DNA of 64,000 nt from Escherichia coli (GCF_050920415.1 NZ_CP169309.1), one strand, 5' to 3'. Shown: positions 11,800 through 60,012, numbered from the stretch's first letter. The notes: a model not told the origin generated them from the letters alone. Translations and numbers: made by a program.

Positions 11800-11940
11800 A
11801 TCATCGCAACCAAACGACTCGGGGTGCCCTTCTGCGTGAAGGCTGAGAAATACCCGTATCACCTGATCTGGATAATGCCAGCGTAGGGAAGTCACAGACC
11901 ACCAGGTCATTGCTTCTTCACGTTATGGCAGGAGCAAACT
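11800..11940 (+). promoter_or_regulatory. TPP (thi-box) riboswitch, thiM leader
   Basis: Contains GGGGTGCCCTTCTGCGTGAAGGCTGAGAAATACCCGTATCACCTGATCTGGATAATGCCAGCGTAGGGAAGTC, which matches the thiM aptamer as I recall it; lies just upstream of the thiM start. Confidence 0.9.
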
Positions 11941-12729
11941 ATGCAAGTCGACCTGCTGAGTTCCGCGCAATCAGCGCACGCGTTAAACCTCTTTTACCAA
12001 CACTCTCCTCTTGTGCATTGCATGACCAATGATGTGGTGCAAACCTTTACTGCCAATACTTTACTGGTGCTCGGTGCATCGCCAGCGATGGTTATCGAAG
12101 CAGAAGAGGCCAGTCAATTTGCGGCTATCGCCAGTGCCTTGCTAATTAACGTTGGCACGCTGACGCAGCCACGCGCACAGGCAATGCGTGCTGCCGTTGA
12201 ACAGGCAACACACTCCCAAACGCCCTGGACGCTTGATCCGGTCGCGGTTGGCGCACTCGATTATCGTCGCCGTTTTTGTCATGAACTTTTATCTTTTAAA
12301 CCGGCAGCGATACGTGGTAATGCTTCGGAAATCATGGCATTAGCTGGCGTTGCTAATGGTGGACGGGGAGTGGATACCACTGACGCCGCGGCTAACGCGA
12401 TACCTGCTGCACAAACACTGGCACGGGAAACTGGCGCAATCGTCGTGGTCACTGGCGAGGTGGATTATATTACCGATGGTCGTCGCACCGTTGGCATTCA
12501 CGGCGGCGATCCGTTAATGACCAAAGTGGTAGGAACTGGCTGTGCATTATCGGCAGTTGTCGCTGCCTGTTGTGCATTACCAGGCGATATGCTGGAAAAT
12601 ATCGCATCTGCCTGTCACTGGATGAAACAAGCCGGAGAACGCGCCGTCGCCAGAAGTGAAGGGCCTGGCAGTTTTGTTCCCCATTTTCTTGATGCGCTCT
12701 GGCAATTGACGCAGGAGGTGCAGGCGTGA
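11941..12729 (+). CDS. thiM: Hydroxyethylthiazole kinase
   Basis: 262 aa ORF downstream of the TPP riboswitch. Confidence 0.93.
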
Positions 12730-13526
12730 AACGAATTAACGCTCTGACGATTGCCGGTACTGATCCGAGTGGTGGTGCGGGGATTCAGGCCGATCTTAAA
12801 ACCTTCTCGGCACTTGGCGCTTATGGTTGTTCAGTAATAACCGCCCTGGTAGCGCAAAACACCCGAGGCGTGCAATCGGTGTATCGCATAGATCCTGATT
12901 TTGTCGCCGCGCAGTTGGATTCGGTGTTCACTGATGTGCGAATCGACACCACTAAAATCGGTATGTTGGCGGAAACCGATATTGTTGAAGCGGTGGCAGA
13001 ACGGTTGCAACGTTATCAGATCCAAAACGTGGTACTCGACACCGTTATGCTGGCAAAAAGCGGCGACCCGCTGCTTTCACCTTCGGCAGTTGCCACGCTA
13101 CGCAGTCGATTATTGCCATATGTTTCATTAATAACGCCAAACTTGCCCGAAGCAGCCGCCTTGCTCGACGCGCCACACGCGCGCACCGAACAGGAAATGC
13201 TGGAACAAGGGCGATCGCTGTTGGCGATGGGCTGTGGCGCAGTGCTAATGAAAGGTGGTCATCTGGATGATGAGCAAAGCCCGGACTGGCTGTTTACCCG
13301 CGAGGGTGAACAACGGTTTACCGCACCGCGCATTATGACCAAAAACACTCACGGCACTGGTTGTACGCTCTCTGCGGCGTTGGCTGCACTGCGCCCGCGC
13401 CATACAAACTGGGCTGACACCGTACAGGAGGCAAAAAGCTGGCTTTCATCGGCATTAGCCCAAGCCGACACGCTGGAAGTTGGTCACGGTATTGGTCCGG
13501 TTCACCACTTCCACGCCTGGTGGTGA
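12726..13526 (+). CDS. thiD: Hydroxymethylpyrimidine/phosphomethylpyrimidine kinase
   Basis: 266 aa; GTG start overlaps thiM stop (GTGA); [16 protein letters not shown] motif. Confidence 0.93.
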
Positions 13527-19744: not shown

Positions 19745-19885
19745 ACAGCACTACCCCGTAGGGCGGATAAGGCGTTCACACCGCATCCGGCAACCTATGC
19801 CTGATGCGACGCTGAAGCGTCTTATCATGCCTACACAGCGCTGCCCCGTAGGCCGGATAAGGCGTTCGCGCCGCATCTGACATAA
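19745..19885. repeat. REP/BIME cluster
   Basis: Repeated GCCGGATAAGGCGTTCACGCCGCATCCGGCA-type palindromic units downstream of fbaB. Confidence 0.85.
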
Positions 19886-28407: not shown

Positions 28408-28494
28408 GTTTATGCATAAAAAATAAGCCCGTGTAAGGGAGATTACACAGGCTAAGGAGGTGGTTCCTGGTACAGCTAGCATTTTATGGGTTAT
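28408..28494 (-). ncRNA. cyaR: CRP-dependent Hfq-binding sRNA CyaR (RyeE)
   Basis: Minus strand reads GCTGAAAAACATAACCCATAAAATGCTAGCTGTACCAGGAACCACCTCCTTAGCCTGTGTAATCTCCCTTACACGGGCTTATTTTTT; matches CyaR as I recall it, including the terminator hairpin and U-tail. Confidence 0.88.
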
Positions 28495-28588
28495 GTTTTT
28501 CAGCGAAACGGATGATAACCTTAATAAATGCAGCTGTATGTGATCGGTTTCTAAGAATTTTCCATCCGGGAAAAATAATCGAAATTAA

Positions 28589-40200: not shown

Positions 40201-40344
40201 TTCCGGCAGCGCCGAAACGGGCAGGGCACGATAACCGATAATCCCGGCGAGTAAGATCGCCACCATCAGCAGCGTGGTGGCGACAGGACGCATAATAAAC
40301 AGGCGCGACGGGCCGCCTGTGCTGCTCGGGGGTAACACCTGCAT
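37222..40344 (-). CDS. mdtB: RND multidrug efflux permease MdtB
   Basis: 1040 aa RND transporter; paralogous to mdtC. Confidence 0.95.
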
Positions 40345-41591
40345 CAGGAGCGTGCTCCTTTTTTCACGTATTCGCGGCTGGTGGCTTTCTCTTCCGAAGT
40401 GGTGGCGCTTTGAGCTTCAACCACTTCCACTTTCGCCCCTTCGGTCAGACGATCAATGCCATCCGTCACTACGCGGTCGCCTGCAGAAATACCTGCGCGG
40501 ATCACCACTTTCTGACTGTCCTGAATGCCCGGCGTCACCAGATGTTTGCTGACTTTGTTTTCGCTATTCAGCACCCAGACAAAATGGCCTTCGTTGCCCA
40601 TTTGCAGGGCGGCGGTGGGGATCACCACGGCGTTTTGTTCGGTGTCGACTAACATGCGAGCGTTAACAAACTGATTGGGAAACAGCGCATCATCCTGATT
40701 ATTAAAGCGTGCTTTCACTTTAATCGTACCGGTAGTGGCATCGATTTGGTTATCGAGACTTAACAGCGTGCCTTCACTTAATTTCTTCGAGTTGGTGCGA
40801 TCCCAGGCTTCAACAACCAGCGGTTTTCCGGCTTTTTGCGCCTGTACTACGGTAGTGATATCGCTTTCCGGCAGGGTAAAGAGCAAATCGATAGGATGCG
40901 TCTGGGTGATCACCACAATCCCGGTGGTATCACCACTGGAGATTTGGTTACCAACATCAACCTGCTTGAGACCAACGCGACCATCGACTGGTGCGGTGAT
41001 GCGGCTCCAGTCGAGTTGCAGCTGCGCACTGGCGACGCTCGCTTCATCAGCCTTAATGGTACCTTCGGTTTCACTGACCAGCGCCTGTTGGGCATCCAAT
41101 TCCTGACGGGAGACGAGATTGGTTTTTGCCAGTTGCTGATAACGCGCTAAATCACGGCGGGCGTTGGCTAGCGTGGCTTTATCTTTTGCCAGTTGCCCCT
41201 GAGCTTGTGCTAATGCAACTTTGAACTGGCTGGGGTCAATTTCTGCCAGTAAATCGCCTGCTTTGACCTGCTGACCCTCCTGGAAATGTAATGCCATCAG
41301 TTGACCATCTACGCGACTGCGCACCGTAACGGTGTTAGCAGCGGTAATCGTACCAAGCCCGGTGAGGTAACGCGGAACCGCCTGTTCCACGGCAGTTGCT
41401 GCCTGAACCGGGGCCAATGGGCCGGAACGCATACCACGGCGGCCACCGGCTGGCGACTGCTGTGCTTGCTTCGTCGCACCTGGCGCTGCGCTCTGGGATT
41501 CATTGCGGCCTTGCCAGAACCAGAAAGCGGCGATGGCGGCGATAACCACCACGATTACGATTACCCAACGGGATTTATAACTGCCTTTCAT
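40344..41591 (-). CDS. mdtA: RND efflux membrane fusion protein MdtA
   Basis: Internal start [16 protein letters not shown] within ORF 40344..41738 gives 415 aa. Confidence 0.92.
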
Positions 41592-41821
41592 CGTTAAGAG
41601 TTTCTCTTCCTGAAACGTTTCGCGGAATGATACTAGTGTAGCCAGCCAATAAGGGAGAAAAATGGAGGAATTATGAAACACTGTCGGGAATCGTCTGAAT
41701 GACGGGCACTTTTGCGAGCACGCATCCAGTAATAACACAGGAAACTATTTTATCTACGCGTTAGCGATAGACTGCATTAAGGGCAAAAGGAGGTAGGCCG
41801 ACGATTTCAGCGGGACGCTGA

Positions 41822-41962
41822 AACGGGAAAGCCCCTCCCGAGGAAGGGGCCTTAAATAAGGAAAGGGTCATGATGAAGTGGATCATCATCGTGGTGCTCT
41901 TAGTCGTTAGCTACCCAGCTTACTAAGACTACCAGGGCGGGGGAAACCCCGCTCTACCCTCA
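41822..41962 (-). ncRNA. Sib-family antisense sRNA (antitoxin), copy 1; ends approximate
   Basis: Minus strand has TTGACA (41992-41997), 17 bp spacer and a weak -10 (TACTTT); transcript would fully overlap the ibs ORF and end at a GC-rich hairpin + U tract near 41822. Confidence 0.6.
41869..41925 (+). CDS. Ibs-family type I toxin, 18 aa hydrophobic peptide (MMKWIIIVVLLVVSYPAY)
   Basis: ATGATGAAG start 8 nt after AAAGGG RBS; hydrophobic 18-residue peptide; below the ORF-track size cutoff. Confidence 0.8.
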
Positions 41963-42150
41963 CTCCTGAAAGTATGCCTTCACAATCAGATTGTCAATCC
42001 GCAGGCTTTGTAGTCTGCGATCCTGCCAGCAAATATTCTTTGCGAGACGTTACGCAATAATCACAGATGAAACTATTTTATCTACGCGTTAGCGATAGAC
42101 TGCATTCAGGGCAAAAGGAGGTAGGCCGCCGATTTCAGCGGGACGCTGAA

Positions 42151-42291
42151 ACGGGAAAGCCCCTCCCGAGGAAGGGGCCTTAAATAAGGAAAGGGTCATG
42201 ATGAAGATACTCATCATCGTGGTGCTCTTAGTCATTAGCTTACCGGCTTACTAAGACTACCAGGGCGGGGGAAACCCCGCTCTACCCTCAC
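42151..42291 (-). ncRNA. Sib-family antisense sRNA, copy 2; ends approximate
   Basis: Same promoter and terminator elements as copy 1, shifted by the repeat period. Confidence 0.6.
42198..42254 (+). CDS. Ibs-family type I toxin, 18 aa (MMKILIIVVLLVISLPAY)
   Basis: Same architecture as copy 1, 329 bp downstream. Confidence 0.8.
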   Translation: MMKILIIVVLLVISLPAY

Positions 42292-42478
42292 TCCTGAAAG
42301 TATGCCTTCACAATCAGATTGTCAATCCGCAGGCTTTGTAGTCTGCGATCCTGCCAGCAAATATTCTTTGCGAGACGTTACGCAATAATCACATGTGAAA
42401 CTATTTTATCTGCAAGTTAGCGATAGACTGCTTGCATGGCGAAAGGAGGTAGGCCGCCGATTTCAGCGGGACGCTGAA

Positions 42479-42625
42479 ACGGGAAAGCCCCTCCCGAGGA
42501 AGGGGCCTTAAATAAGGAAAGGGTCATGATGAAGCTACTCATCATCGTGGTGCTCTTAGTTATTAGCTGGCCAGCTTACTAAGACTACCAGGGCGGGGGA
42601 AACCCCGCTCTACCCTCACTCCTGA
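42479..42625 (-). ncRNA. Sib-family antisense sRNA, copy 3; ends approximate, promoter region diverged
   Basis: TTGACA -35 retained, but the spacer and -10 differ from copies 1 and 2. Confidence 0.5.
42526..42582 (+). CDS. Ibs-family type I toxin, 18 aa (MMKLLIIVVLLVISWPAY)
   Basis: Same architecture; third copy. Confidence 0.8.
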   Translation: MMKLLIIVVLLVISWPAY

Positions 42626-42799
42626 AGTTATGTTACTCCACCCTTATTGTCAATCTGTAAGTCCACGTTCTTGCGGGGCGAATAGCAAAACCCTCTGCGC
42701 TTATGGGCCGAATTCTGAAAGTTGCTTTGCCTGCTCTTATTTCATTATTGCAGTCGGTATGATACCGGACCTCAATAATTCTCTAAGAAAGGATTTCTT

Positions 42800-43459
42800 A
42801 TGAGCGAACAAATCACGTTTGCCACCAGCGATTTTGCCAGTAACCCGGAACCACGTTGCCCCTGCATTTTGCTGTTGGATGTTTCTGGTTCGATGAGTGG
42901 TAGACCTATTAATGAACTTAACGCCGGATTGGTTACCTTTCGCGATGAGCTGCTTGCCGATTCGCTGGCCTTAAAAAGAGTGGAACTCGGTATTGTGACG
43001 TTCGGCCCGGTGCATGTGGAACAACCATTTACCAGCGCCGCTAATTTTTTCCCGCCCATCCTGTTTGCCCAGGGCGATACACCAATGGGGGCCGCCATTA
43101 CCAAAGCCCTGAATATGGTTGAGGAGCGCAAACGTGAGTATCGCGCCAATGGTATTTCCTATTATCGTCCGTGGATTTTCCTGATTACCGATGGCGCACC
43201 AACCGATGAGTGGCAGGCTGCTGCCAACAAGGTGTTTCAGGGGGAAGAAGATAAGAAGTTTGCCTTCTTTTCCATCGGTGTTCAGGGGGCGGATATGAAG
43301 ACGCTGGCCCAAATCAGCGTTCGTCAGCCTTTGCCTCTTCAAGGATTACAATTCCGCGAACTGTTTAGCTGGTTATCCAGTTCGCTGCGTTCGGTTTCCC
43401 GCTCCACGCCGGGAATGGAAGTTGTACTGGAAGCGCCAAAAGGCTGGACGTCAGTGTGA
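42800..43459 (+). CDS. yegL: von Willebrand factor A (vWA) domain protein
   Basis: 219 aa; MIDAS-like DxSxS motif ([11 protein letters not shown]) plus downstream T and D residues (ITDGAPTD). Confidence 0.88.
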
Positions 43460-58214: not shown

Positions 58215-58682
58215 AGTAAGTACAAAACCTATTCGTTGTATGACAAATGTCACAATTCGATCATGGATAAATCGGGGCAAAAATGCAATGTTGCAGCACT
58301 ATTTATCTCATATAATTTGAGGGTTATAACCTCACATTATCCCTGAATTAAAAGTGGCAATAATAAAACATTATTTAAGAAATATCGCATATGGAGACAC
58401 TATATTAATTATTGTCAACCTAAAGAAATTCCTAAAAAACATATTGATTGACACTTAATATAATTCTTAAAAATAGCCAATTGCCGAATTGTTACCTTGC
58501 CTGCTATTCCGTTAGCTGTAACACTTCCTCCTGCATTATTGGAAGCCAATATTCAATTACCATAATGCCACCTTATATCTGGAAAATTAATTCACGGAAT
58601 AACGCTTTTTCATAATCAACTGCATGATGAAAGAGTTAGAAAATCTAAACTAAATCAGTGTATTGGTAGCTAAAAAGCCAGG

Positions 58683-58694
58683 GGCGGTAGCGTG
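58683..58694 (+). promoter_or_regulatory. ops element (GGCGGTAGCGTG) in JUMPstart leader of the wza/colanic acid operon
   Basis: Exact ops 12-mer about 180 nt upstream of wza in a long untranslated leader; RfaH-dependent antitermination signal. Confidence 0.8.
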
Positions 58695-58872: not shown

Positions 58873-60012
58873 ATGATGAAATCCAAAATGAAATTGATGC
58901 CATTATTGGTGTCAGTAACCTTGATAAGCGGTTGCACAGTACTTCCGGGCAGCAATATGTCGACGATGGGTAAAGACGTCATCAAACAGCAGGATGCTGA
59001 TTTCGATCTCGACAAAATGGTGAATGTTTATCCGCTGACCCCGCGCCTGATTGATCAATTACGCCCACGCCCGAACGTCGCGCGCCCCAATATGACGCTG
59101 GAAAGCGAGATTGCCAATTATCAATATCGTGTCGGGCCGGGCGACGTTCTTAATGTCACCGTCTGGGATCACCCGGAACTCACCACGCCAGCTGGTCAGT
59201 ACCGCAGCTCCAGCGACACCGGCAACTGGGTACAGCCTGACGGCACTATGTTCTACCCGTATATCGGCAAGGTTCACGTGGTGGGGAAAACGCTCGCTGA
59301 AATCCGCAGTGATATTACCGGGCGCTTAGCGACGTACATCGCTGACCCACAGGTGGACGTTAATATCGCCGCCTTCCGCTCGCAAAAGGCCTATATCTCC
59401 GGTCAGGTGAATAAATCCGGTCAACAGGCGATCACCAACGTACCATTGACCATTCTCGACGCCATTAACGCCGCAGGTGGCCTGACCGATACCGCTGACT
59501 GGCGCAACGTGGTGCTAACACACAATGGTCGTGAAGAACGCATTTCTTTGCAGGCGCTGATGCAAAACGGTGACCTCAATCAGAATCGACTGCTTTACCC
59601 CGGCGATATCCTCTACGTGCCGCGTAATGATGATCTGAAAGTGTTTGTGATGGGTGAAGTGAAGAAACAGAGCACCCTGAAAATGGACTTTAGCGGCATG
59701 ACCTTGACTGAAGCCCTGGGCAATGCCGAAGGTATCGACATGACCACCTCCAACGCCAGCGGCATCTTTGTCATTCGTCCGCTGAAAGGCGAGGGTGGGC
59801 GAAACGGCAAGATCGCCAATATCTACCAACTGGATATGTCCGATGCCACGTCGCTGGTGATGGCGACAGAATTCCGCCTGCAGCCTTATGACGTGGTGTA
59901 TGTCACCACCGCCCCGGTTTCCCGCTGGAACCGTCTGATCAATCAGTTGCTGCCAACTATTAGCGGTGTCCGTTACATGACGGATACAGCCAGCGACATT
60001 CATAACTGGTAA
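58873..60012 (+). CDS. wza: Outer membrane polysaccharide export lipoprotein Wza
   Basis: 379 aa; lipobox LISGCTV. Confidence 0.93.

Follow-up and report, generated by a model that had tools for sequence, protein, structure and literature searches.

The annotated mdtA-yegL intergenic region of Escherichia coli K-12 holds two ibs/sib units, and the same site in the E. coli DNA investigated here (NZ_CP169309.1 of GCF_050920415.1; the whole stretch of 64,000 nucleotides is called the window) holds three. This raises the questions of whether the additional unit is genuine and unusual, whether all of the units are intact, and whether each Sib antisense RNA would restrain only the ibs gene opposite to it or those of its neighbours as well. 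Our reading, to which we give a probability of about 0.88, is that the region carries a chromosomal ibs/sib type I toxin-antitoxin array at its usual site and in its common three-unit form, whose Sib RNAs would make up a partly redundant, cross-protecting pool.

With reference to its structure, the mdtA-yegL intergenic region was resolved as one tandem array of three 328-bp ibs/sib units (Table 1). Tandem Repeats Finder reported a single array at 41730-42626 with a period of 328, 2.7 copies, 95% matches and a score of 1612, and a repeat search recovered three 300-nt copies starting at 41711, 42039 and 42367, which lie 328 nt apart. The layout is the same in all three units, namely an 18-codon ibs ORF on the plus strand and a full-length SIB_RNA match on the minus strand. 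The original prediction, made from the sequence alone, had described three tandem repeats, each with an ibs and a sib, and this description agrees with both repeat searches, with the translation and with Rfam. Two of its figures needed adjustment: the tandem repeat stood, with a measured period of 328 bp in place of about 329 bp, and the array was found where it had been placed (41741-42640) except for its end, as the -35 box of the third sib at 42648-42653 lies just beyond 42640.

Table 1. Features of the mdtA-yegL interval; positions are counted from the first letter of the window, and sib promoters and RNA ends are placed by homology to K-12
Feature	Position	Strand	Basis and remarks
mdtA, left flank	40344-41591	-	RefSeq annotation of an identical record
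ibs/sib tandem array	41711-42666	.	Three 328-bp units; Tandem Repeats Finder and repeat search
Sib RNA unit 1, SibB-type, 136 nt	41826-41961	-	Rfam, 138.3 bits; alignment to K-12 SibA-E
ibs unit 1 Shine-Dalgarno, AAGGAAAGGG	41858-41867	+	
ibs unit 1 ORF, MMKWIIIVVLLVVSYPAY	41870-41926	+	Translation; RefSeq WP_100733666.1; IbsB-type
sib1 promoter	41969-41997	-	-35 TTGACA (41997-41992), 17-nt spacer, -10 TACTTT (41974-41969); inferred +1 at 41961
Sib RNA unit 2, SibB-type, 136 nt	42154-42289	-	Rfam, 139.9 bits
ibs unit 2 ORF, MMKILIIVVLLVISLPAY	42198-42254	+	Translation; RefSeq WP_100733667.1
sib2 promoter	42297-42325	-	TTGACA, 17 nt, TACTTT; inferred +1 at 42289; identical to the sib1 promoter
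Sib RNA unit 3, SibB-type body, 136 nt	42482-42617	-	Rfam, 139.0 bits
ibs unit 3 ORF, MMKLLIIVVLLVISWPAY	42526-42582	+	Translation; RefSeq WP_100249772.1
sib3 promoter, sibA-type	42625-42653	-	TTGACA, 17 nt, TAACTT; inferred +1 at 42617; -35 box at 42648-42653
yegL, vWA-domain protein, right flank	42800-43459	+	ORF list and RefSeq annotation

The mdtA and yegL flanks place the array at the same site as sibB/ibsB and sibA/ibsA of K-12, with which it also shares the orientation, a unit of about 328 bp and the Sib architecture. The mechanical ORF list runs mdtA to a GTG at 41738 (40344-41738, minus strand) and so overlaps the first repeat unit; the RefSeq start is at 41591, giving a 415-aa product, and the longer ORF is probably an artefact of choosing the longest frame. 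In some strains the match to the window begins only at query base 412-554, indicating that the segment from the 5' end of mdtA to the edge of the array is diverged or rearranged there. Nine plasmid-borne places matching the array query were also noticed.

The Sib RNAs themselves were readily recognised as members of the family. In each unit the minus-strand match to Rfam RF00113 (SIB_RNA) exceeds the gathering score of 56 by a wide margin (E about 1e-29) and covers model positions 1-147 of 147. With the RNA ends set by homology to the annotated ends of K-12 SibB, Sib1 spans the whole ibs1 ORF together with its Shine-Dalgarno sequence, and units 2 and 3 are alike at +328 and +656. The predicted folds are stable, at -61 kcal/mol for Sib1 (z -4.7), -59.3 kcal/mol for Sib2 (z -4.4) and -60.5 kcal/mol for Sib3 (z -4.4), and all three comprise a closing P1 stem, a 5' hairpin, P5, P6, a single-stranded UCCUUAUUUAA and a terminator hairpin, which is the predicted architecture of K-12 SibB. 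Alignment to K-12 SibA-E likewise classed all three as SibB-type, the first 41 nt and the terminator being identical to SibB and the anti-Shine-Dalgarno segment, TRD2, differing from it by a single base.

Upstream of each Sib RNA, the -10 box lies 7 nt from the base aligned with the annotated 5' end of K-12 SibB. Compared with the sequence that precedes the annotated 5' end of K-12 sibB, the sib1 promoter has only two changed bases, both in the spacer, so that the two internal promoters of the array are near-identical to that of sibB. A generic promoter and terminator consensus scan of 41550-42850 called none of the sib promoters and none of the sib terminators, because the -10 boxes match the consensus at only three of six positions and the T tails are short; the promoter calls given here rest on homology to the annotated K-12 sib 5' ends. 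The earlier proposal of putative minus-strand Sib RNAs, each with its own TTGACA, agrees with the Rfam matches and with a putative sigma-70 promoter with a -35 TTGACA, placed by homology, in every unit. The assignment to ibs/sib type I toxin-antitoxin systems, also made at the outset, agrees both with Rfam and with the RefSeq/PGAP annotation of an identical record, where all three peptides are already named 'type I toxin-antitoxin system Ibs family toxin'.

On the plus strand, translation returned MMKWIIIVVLLVVSYPAY, MMKILIIVVLLVISLPAY and MMKLLIIVVLLVISWPAY, letter for letter as first read, and the variable residues are indeed 4-5, 13 and 15. These peptides were expected to be missing from the ORF list on account of their size, and being shorter than its 20-aa minimum is in fact the only reason for their absence. 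All three have the features of Ibs toxins, which are 18-19 residues long, almost entirely hydrophobic, start with MMK and end with S-x-P-A/T-Y. Identity to K-12 IbsB (MMKLLIIVVLLVISFPAY) amounts to 14 of 18 residues for unit 1, 16 of 18 for unit 2 and 17 of 18 for unit 3. The substitutions comprise L/I/W at residue 4, I/V at residue 13 and F/Y/L/W at residue 15, the window alleles giving W or I, V, and Y/L/W, respectively, unlike K-12. Mutagenesis of IbsC has shown that residues 6-19 and the hydrophobic core are required and that the N-terminal residues are largely dispensable (PMC8309996); judged from the translations, the substitutions seen here are conservative hydrophobic or aromatic ones, and the core and C-terminus needed in IbsC are kept. 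In the strains RMDEC465 and M160133 (674-727 of each locus), RefSeq gives the first unit as a 17-aa product begun at the second ATG (WP_224219350.1); ATGATG is nevertheless preserved in the DNA there, and the 18-aa peptide encoded is that of unit 1 of the window, so this is only an inconsistency of start-codon annotation.

It could be argued that at least one unit is a decaying or silent relic, intact in appearance and yet unexpressed or non-toxic. Even in K-12, the annotation of IbsB goes no further than 'putative toxic peptide', and the ibs promoter was not located when the 140 nt upstream of each ibs were aligned with K-12 ibsA-E, because the ibsC, ibsD/E and ibsA/B groups are too different upstream. 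The number of units moreover varies freely, from one to at least four and possibly seven, suggesting that individual units are dispensable. This explanation is nevertheless improbable. In each of the three units the ATG-ATG start and the Shine-Dalgarno sequence are retained, the 18-codon ORF is free of frameshifts, the -35 and -10 boxes of sib are kept at the correct spacing, and the Sib fold is complete with its terminator. Outside two short patches the transcribed region is invariant between units, which is not the pattern of neutral decay. Pseudogenisation was rejected as all the signals are intact.

The number of units was then viewed against the E. coli population, using the 91-nt junction between units as a proxy in 5,426 complete genomes. 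The junction was present in 5,300 of them, with 8,880 occurrences in total, a median of two per genome over the 5,300 (that is, three units) and a maximum of six. In a spread sample of 60 records, the numbers with one, two and three junctions were 25, 25 and 10, corresponding to two units in about 42%, three in about 42% and four in about 17%. Individual strains display the same range: one sewage isolate has a single unit (ibsA only), the B2-like strains SF-166, Nissle 1917 and ATCC 25922 have two, strain 137 has three, and one pig isolate and REL606 have four, those of REL606 being three IbsB-type units plus ibsA. Six junctions in at least one complete genome imply a seven-unit array. Variation of this kind has been described before, with seven ibs genes in O157:H7 Sakai versus five in K-12 and lineage-specific duplications (Fozo et al. 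2010, PMC2887945).

Three units are therefore the typical state and K-12 is a short variant. The original prediction was right that K-12 has two copies here, as its annotation confirms, and that the window has one unit more; to say that the array has expanded by one unit is to describe a well-known polymorphism from the standpoint of K-12, since the median is three units and REL606 reaches four, and neither is the array the K-12 pair plus one, as ibsA/sibA is missing and every unit is SibB/IbsB-type. That the third copy could be a tandem-repeat assembly artefact is scarcely credible. Repeats of 328 bp can be mis-assembled from short reads, with nothing specific pointing to it in this case, but the 1.8-kb interval with its three units recurs at 100% identity in E. 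coli MFDS1022581 (NZ_CP169399) and N96, two independent complete genomes (identical records NZ_CP169399 and NZ_CM169999), and at 97.6-99.4% identity in at least seven further complete genomes; at least eight diagnostic positions separate the units, and three units are the population median. The artefact was rejected because independent genomes carry the same array.

The composition of the array also sets it apart from K-12, as it has no ibsA/sibA body and a chimeric last unit. The sib3 promoter, TTGACAATAAGGGTGGAGTAACATAACTT, aligns with the K-12 sibA promoter, TTGACACTAAGGGCGGAGTGACATAATTT, rather than with the sibB-type promoter of the internal units. Its -35 box, its 17-nt spacer and the TA...T of its -10 box are conserved, and the tandem homology stops at this promoter, where the yegL flank starts. 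In these alignments the last unit combines a SibB-type body with a sibA-type promoter and the yegL flank. The third promoter had been described as diverged, and it does differ from those of units 1 and 2; it is, however, not a decayed copy of the internal promoter and corresponds to the orthologous yegL-proximal, sibA-type promoter found in K-12 and in B2-like strains. Such a unit could have arisen by unequal recombination or gene conversion between neighbouring units in the conserved CAGGAGTGAGGGT, and recombination between a SibB-type unit and an ibsA unit inside this shared segment would yield a structure without ibsA.

Comparable arrangements exist in other strains. The B2-like arrays (SF-166, Nissle 1917 and ATCC 25922) also lack ibsA and end with the MMKLLIIVVLLVISWPAY unit and a sibA-type promoter, and the window has one extra unit on the mdtA side compared with them. 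The unit 3 body is the same as unit 2 of the B2-like array and as the third unit of the four-unit array of Res13-Lact-PEB21-38-A, where it is followed by ibsA; this array and that of REL606 differ from the window in having the ibsA unit. Exact 76-nt cores were searched in the 5,426 genomes, and those of units 1 and 2 are rare, being found in 15 and 5 genomes, respectively, while the unit 3 core is common (421 genomes) and occurs, among others, in B2-like arrays of two units and in an array of four. The patches of units 1 and 2 recur elsewhere in other combinations, for example WI with VISF and IL with VVSY.

Over the 136 nt of the Sib RNA, eight positions distinguish units 1 and 2 and five distinguish units 2 and 3, and all of these fall into two patches. 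Patch A covers Sib +80 to +83, which is the P6 loop and corresponds to ibs codons 4-5; patch B covers Sib +42 to +57, the apical part of P5, and corresponds to codons 12-17, with the differences between units in codons 12-16. In 28 IbsB-type units from 11 strains, several of which are closely related, the columns with a common minor allele were confined to the same two patches, with the exception of one at Sib +7 (4 of 28), and the variable columns include synonymous sites at codons 12 and 16. Considering only elements defined a priori, TRD1 (23 nt) and the P6 loop (about 8 nt) of the 136 nt, all eight differences lie inside, which has a probability of about (31/136)^8, or about 7e-6; other P values for the clustering are only indicative, as the patches were delimited after the data had been inspected.

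The significance of these patches follows from work on SibC, whose fold is the same and in which TRD1 (the P5 loop), the P6 loop and TRD2 (J1/7, anti-Shine-Dalgarno) are placed alike, with an antisense RNA that also spans the entire ORF and the translation initiation region; SibC/ibsC differs from the window in its location at fau-serA, its 19-aa peptide and its ibs promoter region. TRD1 of SibC, at +46 to +68, is sufficient for repression and sets cognate specificity, and either TRD alone represses, so that both must be changed before repression and specificity are lost (Han et al. 2010, PMC2943612). The contact of the P6 loop itself with ibs is non-productive, and the 3' half of this loop assists TRD2 (PMC2943612). 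Mapped onto SibC, the patch at codons 12-17 is TRD1 and that at codons 4-5 is the P6 loop. The earlier suggestion that the variable toxin residues mark sites of specific Sib pairing accordingly fits codons 13 and 15, which lie in the TRD1 target, and is weaker for codons 4-5, given the non-productive contact of the P6 loop.

By homology with K-12, each unit would express an 18-residue IbsB-type peptide from the plus strand and, constitutively, an antisense Sib of about 136 nt from the minus strand, lying over the ibs ORF and its ribosome-binding site. As in SibC/ibsC, the Sib RNA would pair with the ibs mRNA at TRD1, from the P5 loop to ibs codons 10-17, and at TRD2, the single-stranded anti-Shine-Dalgarno segment. 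Such pairing would block ribosome binding and translation and lead to RNase III-dependent decay, which has been reported on Sib pairing (PMC4147584). An unrepressed Ibs would enter and depolarise the inner membrane, as described for Ibs peptides (PMC8309996). With sequence, family, locus, population frequency and complementarity observed, it is expression, toxicity and cross-repression that we infer.

If duplication had been followed by divergence of the toxin codons, each Sib could have become limited to its own ibs, giving three strictly insulated cognate pairs of the kind seen in K-12 SibB-E. The observations on TRD1 agree with this: every pair of units in the window differs there by 4 nt, within the 4-9 nt seen among K-12 pairs and as much as between SibA and SibB or SibC and SibD, and the non-cognate TRD1 duplexes are 10-17 kcal/mol weaker than the cognate ones. 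The 4-nt element that assists TRD2, in the 3' half of the P6 loop, also differs by one base per unit (ACUU, UCUU and GCUU) and could restore some specificity. Lastly, the tight clustering of the differences, some of which are synonymous (codons 12 and 16), points to selection at the RNA level. TRD2, however, tells otherwise. This element of the anti-Shine-Dalgarno and translation-initiation region has no differences in the three window pairs, whereas every K-12 pair differs by 3-11 nt there, and thus in both TRDs. All the sequence 3' of the P6 loop is likewise identical. The perfect complementarity of non-cognate pairs in the window extends over 54 nt, starting at the P6 loop, crossing the ribosome-binding site and reaching the 3' end of Sib, versus 7-36 nt for non-cognate pairs in K-12. 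The predicted TRD2-region duplexes reach -45 to -46.5 kcal/mol in non-cognate and -46 to -48 kcal/mol in cognate combinations, and the two sets of energies are indistinguishable. As either TRD is enough for repression under the rule of Han et al., strict insulation appears unlikely.

We favour the partly redundant, cross-protecting pool of antitoxins, since the differences between units are limited to TRD1 and the P6 loop, and TRD2 is common to all three. From the identity of TRD2 and the published rule that either TRD suffices, we predict substantial cross-repression among the three Sib RNAs. On the other hand, SibA was unable to repress ibsE in spite of a shared TRD2 region (Han et al. 2010, PMC2943612).

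More tentatively, the SibB/IbsB units may be recombining cassettes, in which short-tract gene conversion shuffles the TRD1 and P6 patches between units and strains, differences within a genome are maintained, and the shared TRD2 provides mutual backup in a pooled, loss-tolerant network. We regard this as possible rather than probable. Among the 28 units from 11 strains, several closely related, WI and IL each occurred with both VVSY and VIS-x, and this presence of all four pairings of patch alleles is consistent with recombination. If the proposal is true, a pooled, loss-tolerant antitoxin network could explain why the unit number drifts from one to at least four.

These systems are already known with respect to their family, locus, mechanism and variable copy number, and the exact peptides already have RefSeq accessions. 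A useful outcome of this study is a correction, in that K-12 is the short variant and an array of the present kind is typical. In addition, a shared TRD2 with divergent TRD1 is a natural version of the TRD swaps of Han et al. 2010, and this arrangement could serve to distinguish insulation from redundancy among tandem type I antitoxins.

Other RNA elements were also found in the window. A CyaR/RyeE sRNA at 28421-28506 on the minus strand (Rfam RF00112, 100.7 bits, gathering score 47) lies at the position expected from K-12 synteny. A TPP riboswitch at 11810-11906 on the plus strand (RF00059, 71.5 bits) lies just upstream of the ORFs at 11941-13526 and fits the position of thiMD. At 58656-58694 on the plus strand, about 180 nt upstream of the ORF at 58873-60012, there is a JUMPstart element (RF01707, 57.3 bits, gathering score 35), which we take, by K-12 synteny, to be the leader of the colanic-acid wza operon. 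Finally, a match to naRNA4, a REP-derived nucleoid-associated RNA, at 19761-19831 on the plus strand barely passes its gathering score (60.0 versus 59.5 bits) and is probably just a REP/BIME element.
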